A stretch of 34,620 nt of DNA from Halorarum halobium (GTDB taxonomy: Archaea; Halobacteriota; Halobacteria; Halobacteriales; Haloferacaceae): assembly GCF_032116555.1 (NCBI RefSeq), contig NZ_CP134950.1, forward strand, positions 124,001-158,620. Direction: 5' to 3'. The stretch's first letter is position 1. Every line of letters begins with the position of its first letter. Under the pieces are notes generated by a model that was not told the origin of the DNA, searched no databases, and was given only the letters and a program-made list of their open reading frames with translations. Of this stretch, positions 3,518 to 31,731 are shown one piece after another. A program made the position numbers and the translations under genes.

Positions 3518-3525
3518 TTGTTACG

Positions 3526-7139: not shown

Positions 7140-8906
7140 CTAGAACGGCTGGTGTTCGAGGATGTGCTCCATAATGAGCCGTTCGCGGGCGTCCACGAAC
7201 TCTTCGAACGTCATCTCCTTTGCGCCCTCCGGGATATGATGAGTCTGCTTGTAGTCGTCCGTTCTGGAGTTCATCCAGTCCTCGAAGTCATCGTCCGATT
7301 TCATCTTGTTCGTCTTGTCAATCAGTAACTGGAGGTTCCCCACCCGGTCAGCATCTGCTTCTTCGGGGAGAACCGATTTTGGGATGATGTGGTCGATATC
7401 GTAGTCTTTGCCCCGTGCCGGCTCATCGGGGTAGTGTGATAGCTGCAGAAGGAACTCGATGTCGCGCTTCCCGTACTGGAGCTCCTCGAAAAGCGTGGTC
7501 AACTTTTCTTCGGTGAAACGGAGGGAGGTTCCGTAACTGGATGCCACTTCATCACTGATCCGCTCAAGTGGGAACTCCGAGCTCTCTTCCTCTCGGATAA
7601 CATCCCGGACGAGTTCTGCGATCTGGTTCGATGATTGGCTGGTGAATCCGTTGAGTCGGGCTGCACAGATATAGTAGAGAATGTCACGACGTCGCCCGCG
7701 ACCTTTGATTGAGGTCGAATCGAGCGAGGGATTCTCGTTCTGGTAGAGGTAGTAGGCGATAGGTGTGTAGAGGGCGGGACTGAGGATGTAGGTCACCGTC
7801 GGATAGTAACTATTCAGAAGCTCAGCGAGTTGTTCCATCGTGTTCGAGAACGTATCGGTGAGCCAGATCTCCTTCAGATTCCGCAGCAAGTCGAGTGTGT
7901 AGTTGTCGAACCGATACTGGATCTCGTTGCCGTTGATTGCGAGCAGTACCTTCTGGACGTGCTTCGTAGCAAAAGGAGCGTTCCCACCGTCGATGATCCC
8001 GTTCAGTTCGTCGACCATCGAGTGCACCTCGTCCCGTGCGTTGATTTCCGGCGGCTCCTGTTGCCAGCTACTAGTCATCAACGACAGGAGGATTTCGGCA
8101 CGATTCGGTGTCACCCCTCCCTGATTGATCCGTACGAAGACGTCGCGAACACGGGTGATGTCGTTCTCGTCTTCGGTAAAGAAGTGGAGCTTCTCGTCCT
8201 TGTGGACCGCTCGATAGAGGTCCTCGAAATTACGCTGAGCGTTGAGAATCAGACTATCTGAATTCTCTATCTCGGGGTGGTTCTCGACCAGCTCCTGGAT
8301 CTCTCCCTCAATTTCCTGGCGTTCTGCATAGAAATCGTCGTTGTCAGAGATGGACATGATTCGGTTGACTGGATACCAGTATGCATTCGCGGTTGCGGAC
8401 TGCTCAGAGCGGAAGGAGAAGTCGTATTTATTGCCGAGTTCCGAGTCCGCTGTCTGCGGGTCCGAGAGGAGGTTGAGATAGAGTCGCTTCTGAACCCACG
8501 AACTGGCCTTGTTCCGAGGGTGGTTGTGTTTCCGCTCGTAGAATGATCCGGTCAGACCGATATTGAGCGCGGTCAGTCGCTGCTGGCCGTCGAGGACTAG
8601 TTTCACCGGTGACGGGAGTGGGTCTTCAGAATTGTGCGGGGGGTTTCGATGGGTCGGTGTTGTGAGTGACTGGGGAAAATTTGGTTCGTCGACGTAGTGG
8701 GTGACGAAGCGATATTTGGGCTGAGCCTGTGCTTCCTCAGCCGAGAGGTTCCACTGAAGGAGCGCACCGATCGGATAGTCCCGTAACAGGGAATCAAACA
8801 GATCCACGATGTCACTCGTTTCCCAGACGAACTCCCGCTGAATCGCGGGTAAGAGATAAGAATAATTTATGTTTTCCACGACCTCAGCGATCCGCTTGGT
8901 TTCCAT
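7140..8906 (-). CDS. gmrSD: GmrSD-family type IV (modification-dependent) restriction endonuclease, DUF262 + HNH (DUF1524)
   Basis: LPAIQREFVW, DSLLRDYPIG, LVLDGQQRLT, FVRINQGG; C-terminal DIDHIIPKS...GNLQLL...N..KSD. Confidence 0.88.
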   Translation of the reverse strand: METKRIAEVVENINYSYLLPAIQREFVWETSDIVDLFDSLLRDYPIGALLQWNLSAEEAQAQPKYRFVTHYVDEPNFPQSLTTPTHRNPPHNSEDPLPSPVKLVLDGQQRLTALNIGLTGSFYERKHNHPRNKASSWVQKRLYLNLLSDPQTADSELGNKYDFSFRSEQSATANAYWYPVNRIMSISDNDDFYAERQEIEGEIQELVENHPEIENSDSLILNAQRNFEDLYRAVHKDEKLHFFTEDENDITRVRDVFVRINQGGVTPNRAEILLSLMTSSWQQEPPEINARDEVHSMVDELNGIIDGGNAPFATKHVQKVLLAINGNEIQYRFDNYTLDLLRNLKEIWLTDTFSNTMEQLAELLNSYYPTVTYILSPALYTPIAYYLYQNENPSLDSTSIKGRGRRRDILYYICAARLNGFTSQSSNQIAELVRDVIREEESSEFPLERISDEVASSYGTSLRFTEEKLTTLFEELQYGKRDIEFLLQLSHYPDEPARGKDYDIDHIIPKSVLPEEADADRVGNLQLLIDKTNKMKSDDDFEDWMNSRTDDYKQTHHIPEGAKEMTFEEFVDARERLIMEHILEHQPF

Positions 8907-10638: not shown

Positions 10639-11580
10639 ATGAGCCAAGACACCTCCTCCCCATTGAAAACCACCTGGGAGGCTGCGTTTGATGATATTCG
10701 TGGCAGTCCAAACCCCGAATCAGCTGTTCGATTCGTTCTGAAGTCAGCTGTTAACGATCTACCTACCGGATTCTATCGCGATGATGGAGACCGCCTACTG
10801 CCGACCTACAAAGGGAACGATCTCGGAAAGGAGTTCACCGTTCGAGAACTCGGCCCCGTTTATACAGTAACGCAATCTGGGGATAACAGTCTCCCTGAGC
10901 TCAGTTCCTCTCAACCATCGCTCTTCGAGCCGAATGACCAACAGTCGGGCCTTGTCCCGACCGACAATTCCCTGAGCCGCAGTTCTACCGACACTCAGAA
11001 CCAGCAGGGTCTCTCGTCTGGACAAAAAATCGCTGGCGGTGCTTTGCTCCTATATGCTGCCTACAAAGGGCTGGAAGCCTTTGCCTCTGCAGGCTCGTCG
11101 ACTCAAGAGTCCTCTTCCTCCTCAGGCGGAAATACTGGGCAATCACTCCCTCGCTTAGCACGCGCTGCAACTCGACTTGAGGACAAGCAGTACAACGTTT
11201 TTGTCTCCCACTCGTGGGAGTACGACGAACACTACGAGCGTATCGTTGATTTCCTTGATGAGGTTCCGTCGCTCAAGTGGCAGAATCATAGTGTCCCTTC
11301 AACTGACCCCCTGCCCGTGGATACCGAGTCTGCCCTTCGTTCTGAACTCCGGAACCAGATGAAAACGGCGTCGGTTGTCGTCGTAAGTAGTGGAATGTAC
11401 GGTGCTCACAGCACTTGGATCCCGGAGGAGCTGGAACTCGCCGATGAACTGGACAAGCCGGTGATCGCAATCATTCCAGAGGGACAATCGAAGGTCCCCG
11501 AGAAAATCCAAGAAGTCGCAGATACTCAGGTAGGATGGCGAAAGGCCTCGCTTGTCGACGCACTCGCTGAATATGCCTGA
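10639..11580 (+). CDS. TIR-domain protein (ThsB/MTH538-like) with N-terminal extension and putative single TM segment
   Basis: C-terminal YNVFVSHSWEY...NHSVP...ASVVVV...STWIPEE...KPVIAI...AD.QVGW. The hydrophobic stretch IAGGALLLYAAYKGLEAFA lies between Ser-rich linkers. Confidence 0.85.
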   Translation: MSQDTSSPLKTTWEAAFDDIRGSPNPESAVRFVLKSAVNDLPTGFYRDDGDRLLPTYKGNDLGKEFTVRELGPVYTVTQSGDNSLPELSSSQPSLFEPNDQQSGLVPTDNSLSRSSTDTQNQQGLSSGQKIAGGALLLYAAYKGLEAFASAGSSTQESSSSSGGNTGQSLPRLARAATRLEDKQYNVFVSHSWEYDEHYERIVDFLDEVPSLKWQNHSVPSTDPLPVDTESALRSELRNQMKTASVVVVSSGMYGAHSTWIPEELELADELDKPVIAIIPEGQSKVPEKIQEVADTQVGWRKASLVDALAEYA

Positions 11581-12343
11581 TTCAACCGACGAAGCGGCGG
11601 TTGATCTCTCAGAGGATGGCGCCGATACTGACGATGGAGACACGCCCGAAACAGAACCTGAACACTCTGAAGAGGTCACTGGAGGGGACCCTGCTGAGCC
11701 ATCTGAGGAGGAAGATGTTACAACTGGACCGCTGGCTAATCTAAGTGAGGACGAGAAGAATCGACTGATGGAGCAGTACATACATTACGGGGAGGTTGCG
11801 ATCGAGACAGCCAATCAGCGAGTCCAGATGAACCGCTTTTTCGGTCTGATTTTAACCTCGATACTGGCCGGTCTCTTTGCTCTCGCCCGCGGCAATCTCA
11901 CAACCACTAACGCTGCGATCGTTCTCTTCGCATCAGGATTCGGCAGTCTGATTTGCTACTTCTGGTATCAGAGTCTTCAATCATACCGCCGGCTGAACAA
12001 AGCTCGATACGCCATCCTGAATGAGATCGAGTCGGTCCTGCCTGTTCGTATGTATCTCGATGAATGGCGATATTTGAAGCGAGAGAAGCCTGACCCGGAA
12101 ATCGTTGATCCCCGTCCAGCTGAAGATGCTGACCACCGCTCACATACGATTGTGGAACAGTGGTTCGTCCGCCTATTGGCTGCTGGATACATATCTGTCG
12201 GAGGGTATGCCGGAGGATTCATTTTTACTCCCCAAGTGAAGAGGTTCATCCCATCACTGCCGGACCCATCGGTGGTTGGTTTTGGTGTTGGTGGCGTCCT
12301 CTTGCTCGGCTTAGCTATCCTCTTTAGGATTCAAACCCGCTGA
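11573..12343 (+). CDS. 4-TM membrane protein, putative pore-type effector (resembles the RipA-like octameric membrane protein family)
   Basis: Likely start ATG 11573 overlaps the TIR stop. Acidic disordered N-terminus, then QY...R...NRFF-TM1-TM2-ICYFW...SYRRLN.ARY.ILNEIE..LP.....EW, then two more TM segments. The family call is from recalled motifs. Confidence 0.65.
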   Translation: MPDSTDEAAVDLSEDGADTDDGDTPETEPEHSEEVTGGDPAEPSEEEDVTTGPLANLSEDEKNRLMEQYIHYGEVAIETANQRVQMNRFFGLILTSILAGLFALARGNLTTTNAAIVLFASGFGSLICYFWYQSLQSYRRLNKARYAILNEIESVLPVRMYLDEWRYLKREKPDPEIVDPRPAEDADHRSHTIVEQWFVRLLAAGYISVGGYAGGFIFTPQVKRFIPSLPDPSVVGFGVGGVLLLGLAILFRIQTR

Positions 12344-12651: not shown

Positions 12652-15600
12652 ATGCTCTCACTTCCTCCGCTTGTCGATAACGCTAACAGAACACTAGAAG
12701 ACGCTTACAAGCGGATTATTCCTCAGATCGAGGAAGGCCGTATCGCAACTGGCTACTTTTATCTCTCAGGATTTGACCTCTACCGGGAAGACCTTGAAAA
12801 CCTGGCTGACCCCGATGAGCTCGGCCACGCTCCGCTTCGGATTTTGATGGGCCGTCAGACGAATAGGGGAACTGCTGACGAAATCGGTGAGGGACAGAAT
12901 CTCAAAGAGGAGCTCAAAAGAGAGGTGAGAGAAAGCATCTCGGAGCTGAATAACGCTCAAATTGGCCGACTAGACCGGCTACGAGACTTTATCGCCGAAG
13001 GCGAGGTGAGCGTCCGTGTGCGAAATCCTGAAAACGGTTACTTCCACGCAAAGGGTGCCTCATTTCGAGCGCCACTCGAAGATGACGAAGATTGGGGACA
13101 AGACGAGGATGAAGACACCCGCCCATGCGCTACAGTTGTCGGCTCCTCGAACTTCACCAAGAGCGGCCACCAGAACAACATCGAGCTGAACCTCACGAGT
13201 CAGGATCGACACAAGGCCGAAGCGTTCGAGGAGTGGTACGACAACCAGTGGGCCAACGCCGAGGAGTTCAGTGAAGAGATCATCCGAATCATCGAGAACA
13301 GCGAGGAGTACCAGGACTGGAAGGAACAGCAGGAGGACGAGTCCGACCAGGAGACGTCATCTGAGGAGCTGGGCACGTATCTCGAACCGTTCGAGCTCTA
13401 CAAGCTGCTCGCCTACGACGAACTGAGTGGGAACGTCAACATCCGTGACAGCCCACTGTACTACTTCCAGAAGCTCGGGTACGAGAGTGCAAAGGAAAAG
13501 CTTTCACAGTTCAACGGGTGCATCGTCTCCGACTCGGTCGGCCTGGGGAAATCATTTATTGGCGGTGAACTCCTCCACGACTACCGCCAACGTGGCGACC
13601 ACTGTCTCCTCATTGTCCCGGCAAACCTGACTGATCAGTGGGAAGACCTACTCCAGAACGACACTGACGAAGACGGCAATCCGTACTTCGGGTTAGAGGT
13701 AGACGGCACGCACCTTGACGTGATGAGTATCAGCAAGTTCCAGAATCTCTCCTACGACGAGGTGCAGGACCTCAAAGACGAGTTCGACGTCCTGCTTATC
13801 GACGAGGCTCACCGGTTCCGGAACTACGGGAAATGGCGACCGAATCCGGACCACGATGATGACTACAAGGGGACGCGACGACACGCGAATCTCAGGCAAC
13901 TCCGCGGAAAGACGATGATTATGCTGACCGCGACCCCGATTAATAACAGCGCTACCGACCTAAAGAACCTCATCAGCTTGTTCACCAGCCCGGAGGAACT
14001 TCGGAACAAGGCGTCACTCGACTTTGATGCGTTCGACGAATATATCGAACTCTCGGAGACGCGAAAACGCATCGCATCCGGGAAAGAGGAGGTCGGCGAC
14101 GACGAACAGCAAGAAATCACCGAGCAGCTCCAGCGACACTCCTCTGAGATTTCGAATATCCTGAACGAAGTGATGGTTCTCCGGACGCGCAAGCACGTCA
14201 AAGATCAGATTCAGGACAGCGAAGACTTCGAGATGAGCTTCAAGCCGCCGAAACTCAACAAGCAACAGTACTCCCTGCCGGCGGCCTACCAGCCAATATA
14301 TCGGATGCTTCCCGACGTGATGGACGCCCTCCACCTTCCCCACATCACAGTCAAAAATCCGAAAGCAGGGAGCACGCTGAAAGCCCTCTACAAGCTGAAC
14401 CTCCTCAAACGGCTCGAGTCCTCAACGTACGCGTTCGTCCAGTCGATCGAGACGCTGCATCAGAGCGAACGCCAGCTTCTCGGCCTTCTTGGTGAACTCC
14501 CTGAGGACGAAGATATCGATATGCTCCGAACTGTTCGGGAGGGAGATGACTCTGAACTCGGTGACTTTGTCGAAGGAGCCGACGCTGCTGAAGATCTCGA
14601 ACAAACACTCGAAGAATTTGGTTTCGATACCACCGCTATTCAATCGGAAGAAGGAGCTGATACCGAGGGAGATGAACTGGCAGACGCCACCATCGGCGAG
14701 GTGAAGACGTACATTAGGGAGGACCTCACTCTTCTATCGTATTTCCTCTCGCAGTTCATCGGTGATGTCGCCCGGGATGCGGGTGATGTGAGTGATTATG
14801 CGGTTTCCACGCGGCAATGGCTCGCTGACCACGACGCTGGTGTCCTCCCAGATATTCCTGAAGAAGAGATGAATCCGATTCTCTACCCGAATAGTGACTT
14901 GAGCGAAGTCGACCCTGCCACACGCGACTTTTACGAGGCCGTCTTTTCACTCCGCGAGTTCCGCGACCCGAAGATCGACCGACTTGCAGATGTCCTCACG
15001 AATCACGATCAGAAGGTGCTCATCTTCACGCAGTATCGGGCAACTGCAGACTATGTCTATCGAACCCTCTGTGACAACGAGGATTCACCACTCACAGAGG
15101 CGAACAGTGCCGTCGTCAAGGGCGGTGACGAGAATAAGCAGGACATCATTCAACGCTTTGCACCCGAAGCGTCAGGCTACCAGCAAACGCTCGCCGAGTC
15201 GGGGGACTCAGAGCTACAGTACGTAGTGGCCACTGACACGCTGAGTGAAGGGGTTAATCTTCAGGACGTTCATGTGGTGGTCAATTACGACCTGCCGTGG
15301 AACCCGATGCGGATTGTCCAGCGTGTCGGGCGAGTCGACCGGATCGGGAGTACCGCCGAGAAACACGTCCACAACTTCTACCCGGACGGCGACATCGAGG
15401 CGGCGATCAAGCTCCTGAAACGCCTACAGGCAAAGATCAACGATATCGCGCTCATTGTCGGAAAGGAGAACAACATCCTTGATCCGAACGAAGATCAGGT
15501 TCTTGAAAAGACAGGTGTAGATACGGAGAAGACTATCGGGGAATTACAGGTGGACGAGATCGAGGACTCTCTCCAGAAGTCTCGTGAAATTGACGACGTG

Positions 15601-16458
15601 AATGAACTCGACGACACGAGCAAGAATCCGCTCCTCCGCAATGCGGGGAGTAATGAACACGCTGCGTTCGAGCGGTACCTTCTGAAGCGAGAACTGAACG
15701 AGGATTACGACCTGACTGCGGAAGACTTCGAGTACGCTGAGGACTTCTTCGGTGACCCGCCGGAAGAACGGGAATTCCTCTACACGAATGTAACTGACCA
15801 CGATGCAGGTCCTCGTCCGGGCGTATTCGCCCTTGCCCACCTCTGGTTCGACGATGATGACCACGAGTCCCCGCTTGGTCGCGTCCGTCGTGCTTTCTAC
15901 TACAAGCCCTTCGCCGACGAGGTCAAAGAGCGGCCCGTGAGCACGCTCAACATTGACCCTTCAGTTGACGGCGAACCGATTACCGGAAATCCAGAGACGG
16001 TATTATCGAATCGCGGTGAGATTCAAGCAGTACTTGACGAGCGTCTGGAGGTGATTCGAGAAGGCCAAGTTGAGGGTGCTTTCAAACAGGGAGAGGCCTT
16101 CTCGAAGGAACAGGAGACGATCCTCGATTTCATCAGTCACTACGTTCAGCCGAACCACGGCGGTGAGCCAGCTCCTGTCGAAGAGTTCGAAACAATGGGA
16201 GAATGGGCTACCGACATCGAAGAGCGGCTGCAGGAGGTAAAGCTCGCGAACACGGATGAAGACCGAATTCTACGGGAGATCTTTCGCGAGAATGAGCAGT
16301 ACGACTCCTTCCCAGAGTGGCCGACCGGGGAGTTCCTCAGTCAGCTTGAGGAGTTCTTGGAAGAGAACGTCGAAGCCTCTACTGAATACCAGACGAAACT
16401 GATGGGAGAGAGTGATGTACAAGCGAAGCTCGTATGCTGGGGAGTTGTCGGACAGTGA
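12652..16458 (+). CDS. PLD-nuclease domain + SNF2/SF2 helicase (restriction/DISARM DrmD-like partner)
   Basis: IATGYFYLSG, FHAKG...VVGSSNFT...NIELN (PLD HxK); SDSVGLGKS (Walker A), IDEAHRFRN, LTATPINN, KVLIFTQY, ATDTLSEGVNLQ, NYDLPWNPMRIVQRVGRVDRIG. Confidence 0.9.
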   Translation: MLSLPPLVDNANRTLEDAYKRIIPQIEEGRIATGYFYLSGFDLYREDLENLADPDELGHAPLRILMGRQTNRGTADEIGEGQNLKEELKREVRESISELNNAQIGRLDRLRDFIAEGEVSVRVRNPENGYFHAKGASFRAPLEDDEDWGQDEDEDTRPCATVVGSSNFTKSGHQNNIELNLTSQDRHKAEAFEEWYDNQWANAEEFSEEIIRIIENSEEYQDWKEQQEDESDQETSSEELGTYLEPFELYKLLAYDELSGNVNIRDSPLYYFQKLGYESAKEKLSQFNGCIVSDSVGLGKSFIGGELLHDYRQRGDHCLLIVPANLTDQWEDLLQNDTDEDGNPYFGLEVDGTHLDVMSISKFQNLSYDEVQDLKDEFDVLLIDEAHRFRNYGKWRPNPDHDDDYKGTRRHANLRQLRGKTMIMLTATPINNSATDLKNLISLFTSPEELRNKASLDFDAFDEYIELSETRKRIASGKEEVGDDEQQEITEQLQRHSSEISNILNEVMVLRTRKHVKDQIQDSEDFEMSFKPPKLNKQQYSLPAAYQPIYRMLPDVMDALHLPHITVKNPKAGSTLKALYKLNLLKRLESSTYAFVQSIETLHQSERQLLGLLGELPEDEDIDMLRTVREGDDSELGDFVEGADAAEDLEQTLEEFGFDTTAIQSEEGADTEGDELADATIGEVKTYIREDLTLLSYFLSQFIGDVARDAGDVSDYAVSTRQWLADHDAGVLPDIPEEEMNPILYPNSDLSEVDPATRDFYEAVFSLREFRDPKIDRLADVLTNHDQKVLIFTQYRATADYVYRTLCDNEDSPLTEANSAVVKGGDENKQDIIQRFAPEASGYQQTLAESGDSELQYVVATDTLSEGVNLQDVHVVVNYDLPWNPMRIVQRVGRVDRIGSTAEKHVHNFYPDGDIEAAIKLLKRLQAKINDIALIVGKENNILDPNEDQVLEKTGVDTEKTIGELQVDEIEDSLQKSREIDDVNELDDTSKNPLLRNAGSNEHAAFERYLLKRELNEDYDLTAEDFEYAEDFFGDPPEEREFLYTNVTDHDAGPRPGVFALAHLWFDDDDHESPLGRVRRAFYYKPFADEVKERPVSTLNIDPSVDGEPITGNPETVLSNRGEIQAVLDERLEVIREGQVEGAFKQGEAFSKEQETILDFISHYVQPNHGGEPAPVEEFETMGEWATDIEERLQEVKLANTDEDRILREIFRENEQYDSFPEWPTGEFLSQLEEFLEENVEASTEYQTKLMGESDVQAKLVCWGVVGQ

Positions 16459-16466
16459 TTCGGGAG

Positions 16467-18772
16467 CTACGGTAGGGGCCCCTTCTGATCCAGTAAATCA
16501 TATTTCTCCAAGACCAGATCGAAGTACATCTCGTCCATCAGCTTCGGATTCTCAACGCGATGGAAGTCGTCGAGGACAAACTTCACGTCACGACGTTCCA
16601 GGCCATACGCGTGGAATGCGGCCGCATCGATTTCAGCCTGTAATTCTCTGCGTTCTTGATCTTCTACCGCTGCCTCGATTCCGCCGAGTCGCTTACGCAT
16701 TTCTTTGAATTCTTTCCCGTAACAGTTCAATCGGGCAGCTCGTTCAGCGATATAATGGAACCAGTCATCTCCGTCGGTGAGCCGTGGTAGCTGGGATTCC
16801 AATAGCTCGCGCTTGACGATGTGCGTCTCGACTTTAGTTCGCATCAGGAAATCGAACGCAATGCTGTTCAGGAGTCCCGTTGCCACGAAGAGTTCTTGAT
16901 CCGTAAATCGCCGGACGTAGGGTGACCGAAGTGGGGACTCTGTGAGGTGTTCCTCTTTAGGCTCAATAGCGAACGGCTTGAACGTGTTAATGGTGTGGAG
17001 ACAGATGACGTCCTTCGGAAGTACCGTAGCAATTATCGTCCGCTCGTCCCGGGATCGAGAAACGTCTCGAATGCCGATTCGGTATTCAGTGCAATCGAGC
17101 AGGACATCTTCTTCCTCAAGTCCGTGACTACGGTGTTCTTCGAGTAGTTCATCTACGTATTGAACTTGAGACTTGCTCGTCTCTGAACCTCCAAAGGCGT
17201 CGTAGATTGCTCGTTTGAGGTTCCCCCGGTTGAATTTTTTCTCTCGAACACGGTACTGGGCACTATTCGGTGGATCGTACATCCCCCGACTCCAATACCG
17301 GGGGTTGTCCAAACTCTCTGTGTGGGTATTATCGTGTTCGAATTGGTGGATGTTCGCACCCCCATATACTGGATAATCAGCATTATCAGGGGAATCTTGC
17401 AATCGGTCTTTATCGGTGGACTCGACGAATTCTTTCGTCAACATATCCACAGACCAAGCACCTCCGATATTCTCATCTAGAGGTGGTTGAGTGACTACCT
17501 TGCTGAGGACATCGGCTTCGACTTGTGATGTGATCGAGGGGAAAATTCTACCCTCGGGAGAATAATTGAGAAGCACTTGTCGTGGGATTTCTGCGGCCAC
17601 GTCCTCGATATTATAGACCACGTCCATACTCCGTTGATTGAAAATACCTCGGAGTCGACTGGTCCTTCCACCATACTCAAATGTCAGAATTGCAAATCGG
17701 TACTGCCGATGTATCTGCTCAAAGATTCCCTTATTTTCGAATCCGATGAGGTTCTCTATGTCTGTGTGATCCAGTAGATGCGTTCGGAGGTCTTTCCCCA
17801 TCACTCCCCCGAAGATAGTCCCCGGGAGGAGCAGACTCACCTTCACGCCGTCTCTGGAGAGTCTGAATACCCGCTCAAGAAATAGAGCCGAAAGTTCGTT
17901 CTTTGTCGGCATCGTTCGACCCCCCACCACCGGAGATTGGAGCTTATAGACATCTCCCTGCGTGAAGAAGTCTGCCTGAGTTTCCATCGATTCCTTGTAG
18001 TCCTCCCATTCCCACGCAACTTCAGGGCTTGAGAGGAGTTCTTCCATCACACCATCTTTTTCCTCCGACGGATAGGTACGGAACTGCTCATCGTAGCGGA
18101 TGAAGAAGTCGTCGCGATTCGCGTAGAGCATGTCCCACGGCGGGTTCCCGATGAACACGTCGAATCCACCTCTCTCGAAGACATCGGCGAACTCCAACGG
18201 CCAGTGGAAGGGGGACCACTCCCGAATTTCCTCGATCGTTATGTCGTCAAAGCCAGCGTCTTGAAATTCTCGCTGAAGGATTTCATCAAATTTGTCCCGG
18301 TGTTCCTCTATTCTGTCTTCTGCCTCCTTCCGCCATTCTTGAGCTCAATACTGGTCTCCGCTTTCTTGTGCTTCTTGATGGCCTCTTTCACGTCCTCAAA
18401 ACGAGTTTTCACTTCCCAAGAATCGAGATCGCTGTCTCCGTCTTCGTTACTTTCGATGTCCGTATCGAGTTGACCAATTAGGCTGTTGCCCTGTCGTACG
18501 TTGAAATCGATGTTGGGGAGCGGCTCCACCTCGCTCGGTTCATCCTCGATATCAGCGACCATCGACAACCAGAGCCTGAGCTTGCAAATCTCAACAGCAC
18601 CTTCGTCGATATCGACTCCGTACAAATTGTTGAGTATGGCCGTTCGCTTTGCGTACAGTGATGAGGAGCCTTTTCCAGACTCGATTTCCTCAATCTCTTC
18701 TCGCGTTCTGGATTCTAGCTCCCAGCCTTGCCCTTCAGCTTCGAGCCGCTGGAAATACTCAATGCATTGCAT
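16467..18772 (-). pseudogene. Silent alternative C-terminal cassette (catalytic NPPW + target-recognition region) of the Eco57I-like methyltransferase, with a 1-bp frameshift at ~18344
   Basis: Starts at MQCIEYFQRLEAEGQGWELES, identical to an internal part of the 18935-22558 gene, and lacks that gene's N-terminal ~435 aa including motif I. ORFs 18308-18775 and 16467-18197 join if one base is added at ~18344 (giving SIEAQEWRKEAEDRIEE...SPFHWPLEFADVFERGGFDVFIGNPPW). Colinear with the full gene to its end. Confidence 0.88.
18717..18772 (-). repeat. 56-bp perfect inverted repeat, left copy (putative inversion site)
   Basis: Its reverse complement, ATGCAATGCATTGAGTATTTCCAGCGGCTCGAAGCTGAAGGGCAAGGCTGGGAGCT, is identical to 20240-20295. 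Confidence 0.95.
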
Positions 18773-18934
18773 CAACTGAGCGTCTCGCTATTGGCTGTTT
18801 TCGACTTGATTTACGAATGCTCGTGAAATGCGAGCTGCTTCTTGCATACTACGCAACGGGAGGATTGACCAGTTCAGTCGAAAGTCACCCTCGTATCCAT
18901 CATTTTCATATGAGTAAAGCAACTTTCAGGTGGT

Positions 18935-21900
18935 ATGACTCTCCAGCAGATCACCGCATCCGATATCGCGGGCTGGGACTCTTTACAGGATATAGCGAAC
19001 TCCTTTGAAAAACGCGGGCTCAAACCACGCCCGAAACTTGGGGGCGATAACGAACTCGTAGTCCAGCTTGATGATGACGAATTCATCGTCATCGTCAATG
19101 CTGGCCCCGGTGAGACTGCCACGGACTTCAAACCGGAAAATCGCTCACGGCATACCAACCTCGTTGCCACCAACGATTTCGAGACCTTCACCTTCATTAC
19201 GCGAGTCCGAAGCTGGGAGGGGCAGCAGCACGGTCGAATTAAGCATCAAAAGATTTCGTTCTCGAAGGAGCAGTTCACGCGGGACAGCGGAGAGAAGAAC
19301 ACTATTCTCCAGAAGCTGAACTCGATCGAGTACGGTTCCTCTGCTGCGATATACGATACGCTCTACGACACGCAACAGGTCGTCAAAGAGTTTTATGAAC
19401 AGTTCGAGGAACTCCGGACGGATCTCATTCAAGAGGTCACGGGCATTCCCGACGACCGTGGTGACGCGAAGCAACGATATGTGCAGGTCATTCTTGACCG
19501 GATGATATTCCTATACTTCATCCAAGAAAAGCGCCTCCTTGATCGGAACCCGAACTACCTTCACGAACAGCCGAATGAAGTCGTTGACGAGGGCGGTGAC
19601 CACTACGAAGAGTTCTACGAACCGCTCTTCTTCGAATACCTCGCAGAAGACAAGCAGAACCCTGATTTCGGTAGTCTTCCGTACTTGAACGGTGGCTTGT
19701 TCGCAAGGAATCCTGTCGAAGAGGAGTTCCAGGACGCGAAGTTAGGTGGCCCTGCCGAGAAAACGAACGAGCTCTTCGACGATATCCTCGACTTCCTCTC
19801 CGACTGGAACTGGAACGTAGACGAACGACTCGATATCGTCGATCCCAAGAACCTCTCCCCAGCGATATTGGGCCACATCTTCGAGCAAACGGTCAATCAG
19901 AAGGAGATGGGGGCGTACTACACACCGGAAGAAATCACGGGGTTCATGGCCCGACGGACGATCCATCCATATCTGCTCGATCAACTCAACGAGGCTGTGG
20001 ACGCAGACTACGACGAGATCGACAATGTGTTCGGATTCCCCGTGCCCGAGGCAGATAGTAGCGCAGGAGCTGTTGCCGATGGTGGAACTATAACTCAGCA
20101 AGTTCCAACGGGAAACGTCCAGACCAGCCATGTGGAGACTCTATACCACGACATTCTGAAGGAAGCACACATTCTCGATCCCGCCGTAGGAAGTGGCGCC
20201 TTCCTGCTCGCCGCACAGGAGGTGCTGATGGACCTATACATGCAATGCATTGAGTATTTCCAGCGGCTCGAAGCTGAAGGGCAAGGCTGGGAGCTGGAGA
20301 GTCGTAGTCGTGAGGAATTAGAACGTATCGAGGGTGGGCATGGTGGGGAGTCGCTATACGCCAAACGCTCGATTATTCTGGATAATCTCTACGGGGTGGA
20401 TATCGACGAGGGCGCTGTGGAGATCTGTAAACTCCGTTTGTGGCTCTCGATGGTTGCGGATATCGAAGACGAGCCAGGGGAGGTCGAACCGCTCCCGAAT
20501 ATTGATTTCAACATACGGCAGGGGAACAGTCTAATTGGATTTACAGATCTCATCGAAACCGTCAATGAACAGGGTGATACCTCACTCACAAACTATGGAA
20601 TCGGTGAAGAAACACCGGTTAGCGAGTATTATGAGGACGTAATCCACGCTCAGCGGAAACACAAACGGGCAAATTCCTCAAAAGAAGCAACCAACGCCCG
20701 TCGTCAGGCAGAGTCGCTCATCACCAGCTACAGTCAGAATCTGGACAACAAGGTGCTAGATGAGTTCCATAATGCCGGCGCTGAAATCACTCTGGATCAA
20801 GTTCAAGAATTCCACCCCTTTCATTGGATTCTCGAATTCGCGCTAGTCTACGACCAGGGAGGTTTTGATCTTATTATCGGGAATCCTCCTTGGGACCAGC
20901 TTCGAGCGAGTCGCGATGATTACTTCGTCAAGTTTGATGAGCAGTTCCGGTCCCGGATGCCTTCGAATAAGGACGAGATGCAGAAACAGCTGCTGGAAGA
21001 CGAGGAGATTGCCGAGGGATGGGAGGAGTATCAAGAGCAGATAGAGAAGCAAATGCGGTACTTCACTGATGGTTCTGAATACATCCTCCAGAAACCTGTT
21101 ATTGATGGACGGAAGGATCCAAATGAAAACAATCTTGCGGCACTCTTCTTTGAGAGATTGTTCGAACTCGTGAGCGACGAGGGGTATGTAGCGCAAGTTC
21201 TACCCGGAGTGATCTTCAGTGGCTCTTTCTCGAAAGATCTCCGGATGAAACTTTTGAATGATGCGGAAATACAGTCGTTGGTTGGCTTCGAGAATCATGG
21301 AATATTCGGTGATCTTCATCGACAGTATCAGTTCGCTGTTCTCACGTTCAAGAACCAGGGGGAGTCGGAGCAAATCAAGGGAATATTCGATCAACATGAT
21401 GTTTCTGTCCTCCGTCATTTCGACGAAAAAGCGGTTGAGATCCCACGAGAAGTACTAACCCAATATTCGTTGAAAGCGCGGATATTCCCCAATATTACCC
21501 ATCCTGAGGAAGTGGGTATCTTGGAGAGTATTGTCTCACACCCTCCGTTGGGAGAAAAAATCGACAATAAATGGAACGTCACTCCGCACCGTGAACTGGA
21601 TCGATCACGGGCGTCTGACCGCTTCGTCGAAGAGGAAAATGAAGGTGACTACCCTGTGTACGGTGGAGCAAACATTCACCAGTTCCAGCACGACAATACG
21701 TTCGATTCGAGTCTTGATTCCCCTTCACTATGGAGTGTCGATGAAGATCAGCCTGATCTGAGCGCTAAATACCGTGTTCGGGAACGGGCGTACAACGGTG
21801 GAACGCCGAAAAAGGACATATACGAAGCGTTTGGTGGACCGAAGACCAGCAAATCACAGAAGGGATTCGTCAACGATCTTCTTCAGGAACACCGTGGACA

Positions 21901-22558
21901 GGACCTCTGTATGGATGACCTCCTTCCAGACTTCACGGAATACCGGATTATCTACCGAGATATCGCCCGACCTACCGACGAACGGACAATGATTTCGACT
22001 GTGTTACCCAAAGGGCTCGTTTGTGTTCACACACTCCAGACATTTTCGCCATATGAAGTCAATCCGGAGCAGGACGATCTCTCAGAGTATCCCCTGCGTT
22101 CAATCTATGAACGTGCCTACGATGACAAGGAACTGTTCGTCATCACCGGTTTACTGAACAGCATTCCGTTCGATTACCTAATGCGGACGAAGGTCGATTC
22201 ACACATTGTCCGGTTCAAACTGGAAGAATCACAGGTCCCGCGTCTCACAGAGGGCGACAACTGGTTCCACTATATTTCTGACCGGGCGGCCCGACTCAAC
22301 TGCTACGGTAAGGAGTTCGAGGAGATGCGGGAACGGCTCGGCGGAATTGATCCCGCTAAAGAGGAATCAGAGCGTCGGCGACTTCAGGCCGAAGTTGATG
22401 CAGCTTCTTTCCACGCCTACGGACTCGATAGGGAGGAAATGCAGTTCGTTCTTGATGACTTTCATCGGGTGTCGAATCCTCGAATTATGACGGAAGCGTA
22501 CTTCGAGAAGGTCGCTGAGAAATACACTCATCTTGGAGACGTAGGGCCAATGGAGTAA
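18935..22558 (+). CDS. Eco57I-like (type IIG-like) N6-adenine DNA methyltransferase with C-terminal specificity region
   Basis: PYLNGGLF, ILGHIFE, GAYYTP, motif I ILDPAVGSGAFL, NLYGVDI, LPNIDFNIRQGNSLIG, motif IV GFDLIIGNPPW, and a C-terminal TRD-like region (YRDIARPTDERTMI; LNSIPFDY). Confidence 0.92.
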   Translation: MTLQQITASDIAGWDSLQDIANSFEKRGLKPRPKLGGDNELVVQLDDDEFIVIVNAGPGETATDFKPENRSRHTNLVATNDFETFTFITRVRSWEGQQHGRIKHQKISFSKEQFTRDSGEKNTILQKLNSIEYGSSAAIYDTLYDTQQVVKEFYEQFEELRTDLIQEVTGIPDDRGDAKQRYVQVILDRMIFLYFIQEKRLLDRNPNYLHEQPNEVVDEGGDHYEEFYEPLFFEYLAEDKQNPDFGSLPYLNGGLFARNPVEEEFQDAKLGGPAEKTNELFDDILDFLSDWNWNVDERLDIVDPKNLSPAILGHIFEQTVNQKEMGAYYTPEEITGFMARRTIHPYLLDQLNEAVDADYDEIDNVFGFPVPEADSSAGAVADGGTITQQVPTGNVQTSHVETLYHDILKEAHILDPAVGSGAFLLAAQEVLMDLYMQCIEYFQRLEAEGQGWELESRSREELERIEGGHGGESLYAKRSIILDNLYGVDIDEGAVEICKLRLWLSMVADIEDEPGEVEPLPNIDFNIRQGNSLIGFTDLIETVNEQGDTSLTNYGIGEETPVSEYYEDVIHAQRKHKRANSSKEATNARRQAESLITSYSQNLDNKVLDEFHNAGAEITLDQVQEFHPFHWILEFALVYDQGGFDLIIGNPPWDQLRASRDDYFVKFDEQFRSRMPSNKDEMQKQLLEDEEIAEGWEEYQEQIEKQMRYFTDGSEYILQKPVIDGRKDPNENNLAALFFERLFELVSDEGYVAQVLPGVIFSGSFSKDLRMKLLNDAEIQSLVGFENHGIFGDLHRQYQFAVLTFKNQGESEQIKGIFDQHDVSVLRHFDEKAVEIPREVLTQYSLKARIFPNITHPEEVGILESIVSHPPLGEKIDNKWNVTPHRELDRSRASDRFVEEENEGDYPVYGGANIHQFQHDNTFDSSLDSPSLWSVDEDQPDLSAKYRVRERAYNGGTPKKDIYEAFGGPKTSKSQKGFVNDLLQEHRGQDLCMDDLLPDFTEYRIIYRDIARPTDERTMISTVLPKGLVCVHTLQTFSPYEVNPEQDDLSEYPLRSIYERAYDDKELFVITGLLNSIPFDYLMRTKVDSHIVRFKLEESQVPRLTEGDNWFHYISDRAARLNCYGKEFEEMRERLGGIDPAKEESERRRLQAEVDAASFHAYGLDREEMQFVLDDFHRVSNPRIMTEAYFEKVAEKYTHLGDVGPME
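20240..20295 (+). repeat. 56-bp perfect inverted repeat, right copy, inside the methyltransferase gene
   Basis: Identical to the reverse complement of 18717-18772. Contains the palindrome CAATGCATTG (20243-20252). Lies just downstream of motif I. Confidence 0.95.
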
Positions 22559-22606
22559 CTTCTTAGCTAGCACTACGCCGGTTCATGAATGTTAGTCCAT
22601 TCAGGC

Positions 22607-23278
22607 TTACTGATGAATGCTGTCCAGCGCTCGTCGGGTCATCGCTCCGTCGACATTCAGATATTGACGTGCCGTGGTGATGTCCTCCCACCCGAACATT
22701 GCTCGGAGAGCGGGAAGATCTAAGCCTCTTCCGGCGTGATAAGACGCTGCTGTTGCACGTAATCCATGTAATGAGGTTGCGTCGTTAGACAATTCTGGGG
22801 ACCGTTCCAAGGCAGTTTCCAGTCGCCGCTGTAAGGTCGAGAACGAATACGGCCAGCCGCCATGTTCGTCAAGTAGTAATTCAACCGCGACTCGGACTCG
22901 ATACGAAAAGTGGTACGGAACAGTTCGGGAAGCGGCTTCCGTTTTCGGGAGCCAATAACGCTCAGCAAAGCTCTGGAAATCTGTATTGGGATTGTGTTCC
23001 AGCCGTTGTTTCACCGCCTGTCGACAGTATCCACAGATACCGCCATCTCTCCCCTTCGTACAGTTTTGCTGTGTGGGAATCTGGATCATCTGCCGCTCTC
23101 GATCAACCCACGATTTCGACAAGTGCGTTGTTTCTCCTGGTCTAAGTCCAAGACGGCCTCCAAGGAGAATGGCCGCTCGTGTTTCGAGTCTCTGTTGTGT
23201 ATCATCTATACGCCCAGCACCTTCTAACAGTAGTTCGAACTCGCGTTCGCTAAGGGCCCTCTCTCGTGTTGCTACCAT
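22607..23278 (-). CDS. Small tyrosine recombinase/integrase (catalytic domain only, with Cys-rich insert)
   Basis: LGLRPGE (R), KT, HGLRATAAS (HxxR), MFGW, ARQY (Y); insert NCTKGRDGGICGYC. Start uncertain (ATG 23278 or 23284, or TTG 23302). Confidence 0.9.
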   Translation of the reverse strand: MVATRERALSEREFELLLEGAGRIDDTQQRLETRAAILLGGRLGLRPGETTHLSKSWVDRERQMIQIPTQQNCTKGRDGGICGYCRQAVKQRLEHNPNTDFQSFAERYWLPKTEAASRTVPYHFSYRVRVAVELLLDEHGGWPYSFSTLQRRLETALERSPELSNDATSLHGLRATAASYHAGRGLDLPALRAMFGWEDITTARQYLNVDGAMTRRALDSIHQ

Positions 23279-23409
23279 ATCCATCGCTGTCTGTCGATAC
23301 AAAGATAATCCGCTTCTTCTTCGAGTGGCAAGGTGAATCGGTTCACTGCCGCCAGAATTGCCGTCTGATATGACAGGAAATACTTATGGGTGCCCTCCGG
23401 ACGAAGCGT

Positions 23410-23976
23410 ATGGGACTCTTTGAGACCTTATTTAGCTCATCCACTGGGGATACTGTCCCTCAGGCACAGCAACCGAGTCAGCACGAAATCTTCCCCGAGG
23501 ACAAGTACAATGTCGCATACGCTGTAGCCGCTCGGCCTGAAGAAATTCGGGCGTTAGAACATCTTCTAGAAGCGGATCAGACCTCACCGACCGCCCTGGA
23601 GGCTGAGCCTTTTCTTCAGGATATAATCGAAGATATGGAACGGGATCGGGAATACTCCCTCCGCCTTCGCACCTCTGGAGAGGAGCTCGTCGACGATATC
23701 CGTGAACTCATAGAGCATTGGGACAATCAGGTAGATGAGCAGATAGGGACGATTTGGTGGCCTATCGGAGCAGATACGACCTTTAGGTTGTACCTCCATT
23801 ATCTGGAACTCCGTGCTGACGCGGAAGATGACCAATTTTCGTTCCCGGAGTCTGCTGGACAGGTTCACACTCTCGTCCAGCGTGGTCTTAGTGCAATAGA
23901 AGATGATGACGACTCGAAACTCGCTGTAGTCCACAAGCGAGACATTCCTTGGGAAGAACCAGCTGAGGACAGCTGA
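23410..23976 (+). CDS. Hypothetical acidic protein (copy 1; paralogue at 33863-34431)
   Basis: Open frame MGLFETLFSSS...VVHKRDIPWEE. Conservation with the second copy, mostly synonymous changes, supports coding status and the ATG 23410 start. Confidence 0.75.
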   Translation: MGLFETLFSSSTGDTVPQAQQPSQHEIFPEDKYNVAYAVAARPEEIRALEHLLEADQTSPTALEAEPFLQDIIEDMERDREYSLRLRTSGEELVDDIRELIEHWDNQVDEQIGTIWWPIGADTTFRLYLHYLELRADAEDDQFSFPESAGQVHTLVQRGLSAIEDDDDSKLAVVHKRDIPWEEPAEDS

Positions 23977-24033
23977 TCCAGTTCGCTCCTTCTCAAAGAG
24001 ACCGATTAATTGTATCCAGTATCAAACCCAGCT

Positions 24034-24468
24034 ATGGTAGAAATCTCAGACTCCCTGTGTTCGCTGTTCACTGCGAAAATTAAGAAGGAGGATGGCACAT
24101 TCGTCATCGAGATTCCACCGAGTGAGATCAAGCATGGGGCGCTGACTGTTGATGAAACGTACCGCATCGCTCTTCTTGATTCATCCTCCGAAGCTGAATC
24201 AACATCTCCACAGAGCCCACGGCATCCCGCCTCTCAGGGGAGCACGAGCCATGATTCATCTGGTCCTCCTGTTGATGAGGGAGAAGTGCGCGACGTGACA
24301 ATCGAAACCGTCGGTGATCAGGGCGATGGTATCGCAAAAGTCGAACGGGGGTACGTCGTGATCGTTCCCGGCGCTCAGCCCGGCGACGAGCCAACAGTCG
24401 AAATCGAACAAGTTCAGGAGAACGTCGCGTTTGCGAGCATTGTCGATAGCGATCCGCGAGCACTCTAA
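24034..24468 (+). CDS. TRAM-domain protein (haloarchaeal type)
   Basis: PPVDEGEVRDVTIETVGDQGDGIAKVERGYVVIVPGAQPGDEPTVEIEQVQENVAFA; likely start MVEISDSL. Confidence 0.88.
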   Translation: MVEISDSLCSLFTAKIKKEDGTFVIEIPPSEIKHGALTVDETYRIALLDSSSEAESTSPQSPRHPASQGSTSHDSSGPPVDEGEVRDVTIETVGDQGDGIAKVERGYVVIVPGAQPGDEPTVEIEQVQENVAFASIVDSDPRAL

Positions 24469-30006: not shown

Positions 30007-31731
30007 ATGGTCAACAACGAAACAAAGCTTTCCTTCTCAGTAAAAAACAACCCTGGCGTCTTCGCCTTATTACTGGGTTCAGGAGCTTCTACAGAGGCTG
30101 GCATCCCTACTGGATGGGATATTGTCCAGGACCTCATCCGAAAAATTGCTGACCAGTACGACGAAGAGATCGAATCGGCCCCCTCCGAGTGGTATGAGAA
30201 TACATTCGACGAAGAAGCGAGATACGACAATGTCATTGAGCAGGTCGCTCAATCAAAGGAAGAGCGACGATCGCTGCTGGAAAAATACTTCGAGCCGACT
30301 GCTCTCGAACGTGAACAAGGTGAAAAACTCCCTACCGAGGCTCACAAGAATATTGCTTGGTTAGTTGAGGAAGGGTATATCGGGATCATCATCACGACAA
30401 ACTTTGACCGATTACTCGAGCACTCCTTCATTGATCGGGAGCTCACTCCGCTGGTCACATCATCCGCCAGGGACGTCCGAGAGGCAGAACCGCTGCAACA
30501 TCAAGAATCGCTCATCCTCAAAGTCAACGGTGACTACAAGGATGTCAATCTGAAGAACGTCTCTGACGAGCTTGACGAGTACGAGGATAGTGTTGCGAAC
30601 CTTCTCAGTCAGGTTTTCTCAGAATACGGGCTCATCGTCTGTGGGTGGTCAGCACGCTATGATACTGCCCTGCAGGAGCTTCTAACGGACAACGCGTGTG
30701 ACCGCTATCCTACATACTGGGCGAACTATGGCGGCTTGGAAGACGAAGCACGTGCGATCATCGATGACCGGGATGCAATACAGATCCCTATTGATGGCGC
30801 AGCCGCCTTTTTTACAACGCTCACGGAGAACGTCCGCGCTCTCGAAGGCGCAGAACGCGAGGGACCATTAACTAACGAAATCGCCCGGGAACGCACCAAA
30901 CGGTATCTGAGCCAATCAGAGAAGAACATTGCTCTCGGCGATCTCTTCCGAGAGGAAACAGAACGGGTGTATCAACGGATCTTCTCCGAGGAACGATATT
31001 CACTTGATCACGAGGTTGATCGCGACGCTGTATACCAGCGGTTTGAGAGCTATGAACAGGAACTGAGTGTCTTGGCGACCGCAGCTGCCACGTGTGCCTA
31101 CTGGGGGCCGAAAGGCGAGAACGGTGGTCGCTTCGCATTAGAAAATATGATCGAGCGCTTAGGCTCACCGCCAAGTCCTGAAAGCCGTACCCGTATGGGG
31201 TCGTGGATGGCGCTTAGACAGCGATATCCGATTGCTTATCTTTCGTACGCGGTGGGCATCACAGGTATGGAAGTTGCTAATTGGGATGCCGTGCGAGCAG
31301 TTCTGCGTGAACCTGAACTCGAGAACTTGCGGGGTGATGTTGCCCCGCTTCGGCAGATTCATCCGTGGGAAATTGGGACCGAATTTCCCGACGGAGGCTG
31401 GGGAAATCGGAATCTGCGACCGCGTCTGAAATCTGCTGTCCGACCGATTCTCTCCGAATATATCCCGTCAGATACGCGCTTTGAGGAGCGTTCACGGGAG
31501 TTTGAGGCGCTGCTTGACTTACTTCTCCTCGTCTCGAAGGAGGTCGACGAGGATCAACGGCTTCCTCACTTCGAGCAAAACTACTACAAAGAAACGCTGA
31601 ATTCCTTGGAAGCGGAACTCGAAGCGAAAGGTGAAGATTGGGGGCCAATACAGATCGGGTTGCTGCCGGCTGATATTGATACTGTAAGCGCCTATCTCTC
31701 GAATCTTGAATCGCGCTTTGATCCATACTAA
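30007..31731 (+). CDS. SIR2-like (SIR2_2) NADase-family protein with helical C-terminal region
   Basis: FALLLGSGASTEAGIPTGWDI, PTEAH, IITTNFDRLLE, LKVNGDY (usually HG), LIVCGWS..YD. Confidence 0.85.
   Translation: MVNNETKLSFSVKNNPGVFALLLGSGASTEAGIPTGWDIVQDLIRKIADQYDEEIESAPSEWYENTFDEEARYDNVIEQVAQSKEERRSLLEKYFEPTALEREQGEKLPTEAHKNIAWLVEEGYIGIIITTNFDRLLEHSFIDRELTPLVTSSARDVREAEPLQHQESLILKVNGDYKDVNLKNVSDELDEYEDSVANLLSQVFSEYGLIVCGWSARYDTALQELLTDNACDRYPTYWANYGGLEDEARAIIDDRDAIQIPIDGAAAFFTTLTENVRALEGAEREGPLTNEIARERTKRYLSQSEKNIALGDLFREETERVYQRIFSEERYSLDHEVDRDAVYQRFESYEQELSVLATAAATCAYWGPKGENGGRFALENMIERLGSPPSPESRTRMGSWMALRQRYPIAYLSYAVGITGMEVANWDAVRAVLREPELENLRGDVAPLRQIHPWEIGTEFPDGGWGNRNLRPRLKSAVRPILSEYIPSDTRFEERSREFEALLDLLLLVSKEVDEDQRLPHFEQNYYKETLNSLEAELEAKGEDWGPIQIGLLPADIDTVSAYLSNLESRFDPY

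Follow-up and report, generated by a model that had tools for sequence, protein, structure and literature searches.

In bacteria, phase variation of the specificity of restriction and defence systems occupies a large place in host–virus and epigenetic biology. In Mycoplasma pulmonis, for example, expression-site inversions at vsa and hsd connect the one 5′ end that bears a promoter to one or another silent 3′ cassette. For archaeal cells, phase variation of defence specificity has hitherto been little more than a computational suggestion. Here we analyze a stretch of 34,620 nt from the haloarchaeon Halorarum halobium (the whole stretch is referred to as the window), located on contig 2 of a source assembly of 3 contigs and 3.68 Mb. 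In this window a methyltransferase gene, a truncated second C-terminal half of such a gene and a tyrosine recombinase gene lie side by side, and together they are an archaeal example of a kind of inversion switch already described in bacteria.

The closest described systems were reported by Milman, Yelin & Kishony (Nucleic Acids Research, 2023), where long reads show programmed inversions in bacteria that target Eco57I-domain and Type II enzymes (PMC9881135). The passages of that paper drawn on here give as the general pattern one upstream part with alternative downstream parts, and they describe two loci at which the enzyme adjoins a phospholipase-D (PLD) + SNF helicase gene; as stated there, the scan covered bacteria only and excluded archaea. 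In these bacterial Type II(G)-like inversions (Cj0031 homologues, e.g., Bacteroides ovatus CP083813.1), a PLD + SNF2 helicase stands beside an Eco57I-class enzyme, as it does in the window, and the logic of inverted repeats, a single upstream part and a recombinase nearby is shared as well, whereby the likeness is one of domain make-up and logic as given in the published description. In the window, the invertible DNA consists of the constant N-terminus with its presumed promoter, lying between two head-to-head cassettes. The type 1 bacteriophage exclusion (BREX) gene pglX of Lacticaseibacillus rhamnosus, also treated in PMC9881135, has a related fold and an adjacent recombinase, and inversions alter part of the protein. 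There, according to the same passages, a middle part is exchanged via two nested inversions, whereas in the window one inversion would exchange everything from codon 436 to the stop. BREX itself was rejected for the window, as BREX_1_MTaseX (PglX) reached 76 bits against a cut-off of 500, and PglZ and BrxC were not found among the 21 window open reading frames (ORFs) scanned. Class 1 of the defence island system associated with restriction–modification (DISARM) was rejected likewise, with 145 bits for DISARM_DrmD against a cut-off of 610 and neither DrmA nor DrmB (DUF1998) found among the ORFs scanned.

In Streptococcus pneumoniae, inversions by the tyrosine invertase PsrA at hsdS change the specificity of a restriction–modification system (PMC4948785, PMC7096588). 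As far as described in the portions of these papers used here, a separate S subunit is shuffled there, whereas in the window the predicted recognition part belongs to the catalytic chain and would be exchanged along with half of the catalytic domain. A type I hsdS shufflon was rejected for the window, because Methylase_S, HsdM and HsdR-type matches were not found among its ORFs. In the haloarchaeal virus phiCh1, Int1 inverts tail-fibre genes (Klein et al., 2012, as cited in PMC6471424 and PMC8371274). As in the window, a haloarchaeal tyrosine recombinase and inversion between oppositely oriented gene copies are connected with protein variants; unlike in the window, where a cellular defence methyltransferase is concerned, the target according to these citing accounts is a viral adhesin and the recombinase gene lies between the copies. 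Chanin et al. counted 12 invertons in 42 archaeal long-read data sets, and the part of their report considered here names one archaeal target gene, adenylosuccinate synthase, and mentions no methyltransferase (PMC10028968). A report of an inverting methyltransferase in archaeal cells was not found in the full-text literature, to the extent covered by the relevant passages of PMC9881135, PMC10028968, PMC6471424, PMC7002104, PMC8371274, PMC10609329, and PMC13076061, among others, whereby Data S2 of PMC10028968, in which the 12 archaeal invertons are tabulated, could bear on this.

The full methyltransferase gene is located at 18935–22558 on the plus strand and was confirmed as an ORF of 1207 aa; like most of the anatomy that follows, it had been called in an earlier sequence-only reading of the window. 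Back to back with it, the body of a second C-terminal half without N-terminus (cassette B) occupies 16467–18716 on the minus strand, presumably promoterless and silent in the state of the window. For this copy including its repeat, the coordinates 16467–18772 and the N-terminal truncation given in that reading hold, but the copy is not one open frame in the window, the break at 18344/18345 having been missed. The two genes share a perfect inverted repeat of 56 nt, the presumed recombination site, which is in frame in both cassettes. Its left arm (18717–18772, minus strand) forms the first 19 codons of cassette B, and its right arm (20240–20295, plus strand; codons 436–454, starting with ATGCAATGCATTGAG) begins precisely with codon 436 of the complete gene. 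Towards the N-terminus no homology between the two copies was found outside the repeat, and the reading frame of the truncated copy meets a stop six codons upstream of it; the repeat and its sharp boundary had been described correctly. Past the repeat, the nucleotide identity falls to 68% (167/247), with 88% protein identity across the first 100 residues; 43 of 82 codons differ only synonymously, and the DNA for a 31-residue peptide that is identical in both cassettes agrees at just 71 of 93 nt. The probability of a perfect run of 56 nt at a background of 68% is P ~3e-10. Since 56 of 56 nt agree within the repeat compared to 68% beyond it, the identity appears to be locally maintained and not the trace of a recent duplication; both the synonymous divergence and the local maintenance had been claimed before and are borne out.

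Between the two arms lies the invertible segment of 1467 bp (18773–20239, plus strand), which contains a 162-nt upstream region (18773–18934) and codons 1–435, encoding a putatively nuclease-like N-domain, a helical spacer and motif I. The body of cassette A (20296–22558, plus strand), joined to the N-terminus in the state of the window, comprises a conserved linker up to approximately residue 536 followed by the variable part. The tyrosine recombinase gene, described as directly adjacent in the sequence-only reading, is indeed found 48 nt beyond the methyltransferase stop and convergent with it; it encodes a presumed invertase of 231 aa (22607–23302, minus strand; Pfam Phage_integrase 42.9 bits, cut-off 27.1). 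On the other side, a gap of 8 nt separates the cassette B stop codon from the stop of the gene for an HKD/PLD + SNF2 helicase of 1268 aa (12652–16458, plus strand; Pfam PLDc_2, SNF2-rel_dom, ResIII, and Helicase_C; PADLOC “HKD+Snf2” 4e-81). This helicase adjoins the methyltransferase in related loci with 82–99% identity and is thus a conserved partner gene.

We assign a probability of roughly 0.78 to the reading of the locus as a switch with two states, set by recombinase-driven DNA inversion, within a restriction or defence module of haloarchaea. In this module a PLD-SNF2 helicase-nuclease would be paired with an N6-adenine methyltransferase of the gamma class that resembles MmeI and Eco57I, and a single copy of the first 435 codons, together with the presumed promoter, is carried on the 1467-bp segment between the 56-bp inverted repeats. 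The repeats are at the same time the opening 19 codons of two alternative C-terminal cassettes arranged head to head, and the small tyrosine recombinase next to them, as the probable catalyst of the inversion, would recombine them and flip the segment. In this way the N-terminus would be fused in frame either to cassette A (recombinase side) or to cassette B (helicase side), and the unjoined cassette would be left without promoter or N-terminus. Such a flip would most likely alter the methylated sequence and hence what the system treats as self. The position of the promoter is suggested by an alignment of the sequences that precede the start codon in 11 loci, in which an A/T-rich element at about −32 to −24 is present in 9 of 11 and a CTTTC-like block at about −12 in the same nine; L117 and L118, the most distant single-cassette relatives, fail to align over these elements. 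The elements would fit a haloarchaeal TATA box and a leaderless or short-leader mRNA, and a promoter placed on the invertible segment would leave the unjoined cassette silent.

The flipped state is present in nearly identical DNA. A search of a metagenome collection with the first 33 nt of the repeat led to one 91.8-kb contig (L034, L035). The flanks of L034 match those of the window at 99.98–99.99%, and the 1467-nt segment between the repeats is 100% identical to that of the window and inverted relative to the flanks. After in-silico inversion of 18773–20239, the window and L034 are collinear for 14,033 nt and differ by 1 mismatch and 1 gap; the gap is the base at 18344. In L034 the N-terminus continues in frame into cassette B as an intact ORF of 1203 aa, and cassette A is left as a silent copy of 772 aa, presumably promoterless. 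This is the very product that the sequence-only reading had predicted from an inversion of the 1467 bp, namely fusion to cassette B and silencing of cassette A. The inversion has happened and the flipped form occurs in nature, and the interpretation of that reading, a constant part flipping between two fixed variable parts, is supported. Contigs assembled at k = 31 from individual sequencing runs show the 56-nt repeat as a separate unitig with twice the flanking depth (run X3) and the 33-nt repeat of a relative as a unitig (run X17); such contigs break exactly at the repeat and cannot span 56 or 33 nt, so that the orientation cannot be read from them. Low-depth joints between opposite strands in the metagenome runs X7 and X9 (e.g., 18133/20996) lie off the repeat; their sides of 32–39 nt have 85% likeness, and they were interpreted as paralogues of other organisms and not used as evidence.

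Of 401 genomes sampled from the class, 92 contain homologues of the recombinase (E ≤ 1e-15), many of these homologues being 90–97% identical although in other genera. Loci were retrieved around the best recombinase matches (20) and around homologues of the N-terminus (35), with duplicates counted once. The complete layout, i.e., helicase, inverted cassette, N-terminus, cassette, and recombinase, is present in 13 loci, whereby the recombinase-side state is found in six (the window, L068, L070, L074, L080, and L081) and the helicase-side state in seven (L034, L069, L071, L073, L075, L078, and L079). The flipped arrangement, which was to be looked for in related genomes according to the sequence-only reading, thus recurs there alongside the other state, always together with the recombinase. 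Nine loci cut by contig ends (L066, L067, L072, L076, L077, L083, L089, L095, and L101) and three irregular ones (L082, L084, and L110) stand outside this count; L082 (genome G397) has recombinase, silent cassette and N-terminus without a downstream cassette or helicase, and cassette fragments are located 11 kb away. L090 is 99.7% identical to the window and in the same state, and is therefore not independent. The close pair L074 and L075 shows opposite states at a synonymous divergence (dS) of 0.018–0.025 in the cassettes. Genome G387 contains two diverged copies of the module on contigs L070 and L071, one per state, and its helicase-side cassettes are 97 and 91% identical to cassette B.

Both states also occur in finished circular plasmid records, which were not added to the 13 because of a possible overlap with the census loci. 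In Halorussus limi plasmid unnamed4 (L121), the gene of 1207 aa is on the recombinase side with a 768-aa “PglX” opposite, and in Halorubrum salinarum pHAR02 (L122), the gene of 1203 aa is on the helicase side with a 782-aa “hypothetical protein” opposite; the public annotation of these two records does not flag a switch. In public records, the silent cassettes are labelled “PglX” or “hypothetical” and the recombinase is labelled “site-specific integrase” by RefSeq, so that the present analysis corrects an annotation in which the cassettes are filed as separate genes and the recombinase as an integrase. The switch is widespread on haloarchaeal plasmids. Recombinase and whole module are 90–99% identical in different genera, and the cassettes (n = 26) fall into 10 classes that are mutually 48–58% identical, with the N-terminus remaining 83–100% identical. 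The haloarchaeal host proposed earlier agrees with the records, as 34 of the 35 N-terminus loci come from named Halobacteria of many genera. The remaining one (L103) belongs to a metagenome-assembled genome labelled Nitriliruptoria, a bacterial class; its N-terminus is 88% identical to that of the window and the helicase is convergent, which reflects either a binning error or a transfer across domains.

Sixteen relatives with N-termini of 66–88% identity (L026, L027, L100, L103, L106–L109, L111–L113, and L115–L119) have just one full-length gene, in most cases convergent with the helicase. In the fetched flanks of these 16 loci, neither a second cassette nor a recombinase homologue was found, so that the recombinase homologue accompanies 13 of 13 two-cassette loci compared to 0 of 16 single-cassette loci. 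Given the gene order of the single-cassette loci, the helicase-side state reproduces the ancestral order, and the second cassette and the recombinase are a derived addition that always comes together. As the loci are kin, this co-occurrence is an association and not a statistical test.

Several observations weigh against the proposed switch. The census loci are linked by descent or transfer and do not represent independent events. The two orientations of near-identical DNA were observed in separate assemblies, and switching within one population is an inference. The silent cassette of L068 (genome G390) stops after 217 aa in its assembly. The cassettes differ throughout, including half of the catalytic domain, and not just in a target recognition domain (TRD). 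Finally, the 90–99% identity of recombinase and module across genera means that the recombinase could also, or instead, serve mobility.

The methyltransferase matches the Pfam families Eco57I (6.8e-24), N6_Mtase and MmeI_Mtase and, over part of its length, PADLOC REase_MTase_IIG (2.7e-67). Motif I (DPAVGSGAF) and motif IV (NPPW) are invariant and place it among the gamma-class N6-adenine methyltransferases, whereby motif I is located on the invertible constant part and motif IV in the cassette. The body of cassette B aligns to residues 455–1207 of the full protein. Residues 1–536 are 80–92% identical to those of single-cassette relatives; beyond that, starting at approximately residue 537, the two cassettes and the C-terminal halves of the relatives are mutually only 35–69% identical. 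The candidate recognition segments listed in the sequence-only reading are present, yet the differences between the cassettes (56% identity) extend from end to end and are not confined to these segments. An AlphaFold model of residues 400–1207 (28-sequence alignment; predicted local distance difference test score, pLDDT, 76.7; predicted template modelling score 0.68) matches gamma-class adenine methyltransferases with C-terminal recognition domains. These are M.BseCI (Z 15.8; root mean square deviation 6.2 Å over 359 aligned residues), CamA-DNA (Z 14.0), E. coli BrxX-DNA (Z 13.1; range for BrxX 10.9–13.1), MmeI-DNA (Z 9.9), M.TaqI (Z 9.3), DrdV (Z 8.9), and LlaGI (Z 8.7). Alignments to chains that combine methyltransferase and TRD extend to about model residue 770, whereas TRD-less type I HsdM subunits align only to about model residue 457, which would place the equivalent of the recognition domain at approximately residues 857–1170, wholly inside the cassette; Pfam MmeI_TRD gave no match, and the placement is by fold only. 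The constant N-terminal part (model pLDDT 66) contains an MmeI-like helical spacer (Z 9.4 to MmeI 162–448). Its first ~140 residues (7–139) yield weak nuclease-like fold matches at this pLDDT (Z 4–5.7), the best being the DrdV N-domain (Z 5.7) and a putative restriction endonuclease domain (Z 5.5), and no invariant D/E/K triad was evident in the sequence alignment.

Because the cassette supplies motif IV and, according to the model, the DNA-recognition region, the flip is likely to swap DNA specificity, with a different recognition sequence presumably belonging to each cassette. Divergence along the whole length leaves room for something other than DNA specificity to be what varies, and an unlikely alternative, though the strongest of those considered, holds accordingly that the switch is real but that the halves vary in anti-restriction sensitivity or partner interactions, as a decoy in an arms race. 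It draws on the divergence being distributed over all 670 residues of the variable part, the catalytic subdomain around NPPW among them, and not being concentrated in one TRD patch. However, this variable part includes the region structurally aligned to the DNA-contacting TRDs of M.TaqI, CamA, MmeI, and BrxX, and for bacterial inversion systems with enzymes of this class, the passages of PMC9881135 cited above take the exchanged part to be the one that determines specificity.

The R-K-H-R-W-Y catalytic set of tyrosine recombinases is intact in the recombinase: an alignment of 12 homologues, the most distant of them with 42% identity, has R54, K120, H179, R182, W205, and Y214 in every sequence. 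C81, C90, and C93 are also kept in the 12 homologues and H78 nearly always, and this conserved Cys/His insertion may form a metal-binding knuckle. With the first catalytic arginine (Arg I) at residue 54 and a stop-to-stop frame of at most 258 aa in the closest homologues, the protein lacks the N-terminal core-binding (SAM-like) domain and consists of the catalytic domain only. Small tyrosine invertases of the FimB/FimE type, which are bacterial and have unrelated targets, have no large N-terminal domain either, and the recombinase of the window resembles them in size. A phmmer search against PDB sequences gave 0 matches for the recombinase and 0 for the methyltransferase.

The repeats themselves keep a fixed boundary. 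In the lineage whose N-termini are 97–100% identical, codon 436 is always the start of the repeat, which is 38–59 nt long and whose outer arm always ends 163–164 nt before the start codon; with the 33 nt of the repeat in the organism of run X17, the range among the relatives is 33–59 nt. Thus, the N-proximal boundary is fixed in the lineage of the window although the length varies. L078 has a repeat of 72 nt with a different sequence at the same position. In the sister lineage L079–L082, the repeat of 27–80 nt begins 153–154 nt further into the gene, in the stretch coding for YGVDIDxGAVEICKLRLW, so that the presumed crossover site has moved during evolution. In all three kinds of repeat, CATTGA (TATTGA in L079) is found 8–9 nt from the N-proximal boundary; it may mark the core recombination site, which is a lead and not a result.

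These data also bear on a further alternative, unlikely and somewhat less probable than the decoy reading, in which the inversions arise by general homologous recombination at short repeats and the recombinase is an integrase that moves the module between replicons. The 90–99% identity of the module across genera and its location on plasmids agree with this view, since a mobile module needs some mobility function, and so does the RefSeq label “site-specific integrase.” Against it stand the strict association of the recombinase with two-cassette loci, the shortness of the repeats (27–80 nt) with their sharp, conserved boundary, the presence of CATTGA or TATTGA at the same distance from the boundary at both repeat positions (codon 436 and 153–154 nt further), and the small size of the recombinase, which is without an N-terminal arm-binding domain.

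Cassette B is split in the window into two ORFs in different frames (18308–18775 and 16467–18197), with the break at 18344/18345. Four public runs, namely those of the probable source isolate, of two metagenomes and of one related organism, were inspected at this position, and an extra T behind 18344 is present at full depth in all of them (X3, X7, X9, and X17; 7.49/7.49, 49.4/49.4, 36.1/36.1, and 3.31/3.31). The base that the window lacks is an A on the minus strand inside an AA run; its addition restores a single cassette B frame of 768 aa, and L034 also reads through the site. As four of four runs carry the missing base, the frameshift in the window is an assembly error. Silent cassettes are intact ORFs (723–782 aa) in 11 of the 13 two-cassette loci, the two exceptions being the window with its assembly error and the unverified L068. 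One and the same class of cassette occurs as a silent copy in some genomes and joined to the N-terminus elsewhere. The ratio of nonsynonymous to synonymous divergence (dN/dS) within a class is 0.03–0.15 in all 32 pairs computed (pairs of equal length), including the silent–silent pairs L034/L073 (dS 0.43, ratio 0.10) and L070/L074 (dS 0.44, ratio 0.11). These ratios show long-term purifying selection on the silent cassettes, which, for copies without promoter and N-terminus, implies that they are regularly brought into expression.

The frameshift in the window had seemed to favour the view that an old duplication and rearrangement left cassette B behind to decay and that the locus is fixed in its organism. 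This view is already contradicted and retains hardly any probability: the frameshift is absent from all four runs and from L034, dN/dS is about 0.1 on silent copies, and the flipped state exists in near-identical DNA. A pseudogene reading of cassette B was rejected on the same grounds of run data, read-through in L034 and purifying selection.

Seven of the 35 N-terminus loci, which come from draft genomes of various genera (L087, L091, L092, L096, L097, L098, and L099), have the invertible segment on a contig of its own, 1467–1761 nt long. Such an orphan contig is the expected assembler output for a repeat-bracketed segment that possibly occurs in mixed orientation, and the signature could be used as a simple screen of draft assemblies for such switches. 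That the two states are an assembly artefact, an arbitrary orientation of the repeat-flanked segment, is most improbable, because, even though orphan contigs indicate that assemblers struggle at these repeats, both states are found in finished circular plasmid records and in assemblies of 3–4 contigs, the 56-nt repeat is shorter than ordinary reads, and the helicase-side arrangement is the real gene order in single-cassette relatives.

A wider reading of the switch, to which we give only slightly better than even odds, has several parts. In it, the locus would be a plasmid-borne, self-contained, horizontally circulating and phase-variable defence module of Halobacteria and the first cellular archaeal inversion switch of restriction–modification specificity. 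Its recombinase would represent a new family of minimal tyrosine invertases, with a Cys-rich insertion and no core-binding domain, that acts on a short core near CATTGA; the crossover site would have moved at least once, and at least 10 interchangeable specificity cassettes would have been traded between genera. The locus provides a concrete and widespread example in culturable, genetically tractable haloarchaea, with both states present in public genomes. It raises the questions of whether archaea hedge their methylome and virus defence, of how a cell survives when the exchange of half the enzyme suddenly alters its mark of “self,” and of what target is recognized by a tyrosine invertase without core-binding domain.

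Pfam and PADLOC scans of the window ORFs show that the surroundings of the switch locus are a defence island, with the methyltransferase switch positioned between flanking defence genes. At the beginning of the window (3–4650) lies an operon resembling a cyclic oligonucleotide-based antiphage signalling system (CBASS), with a TIR + SAVED effector cut at the window edge, a 778-aa E1/E2/JAB protein (domains ThiF, Prok-E2_A, and Prok-JAB) and a SMODS nucleotidyltransferase, and after it an Orc1/Cdc6-like AAA+ gene (4675–5703). They are followed by the gene for a GmrSD-type nuclease (7140–8906) and by a ThsB-like TIR gene and then a gene of the 8xMP octameric membrane protein family (10639–12343). 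On the far side of the switch, a SIR2 protein is encoded at 30007–31731 (PADLOC PDC-S65, 1.7e-165).

Next to the recombinase, an ORF of 196 aa (23386–23976, plus strand) has no family match in Pfam or PADLOC. It is 96–98% identical beside the recombinase in L066–L071 and absent in L073–L075, so that it travels with the module only in some genomes and its membership in the module is uncertain. Together with a TRAM-domain gene it makes up 23386–24468, a stretch that is 93–98% identical at the same place in L066–L071 and absent from L073–L075; the two genes may constitute an accessory factor, or else the same mobile segment may carry them as cargo.

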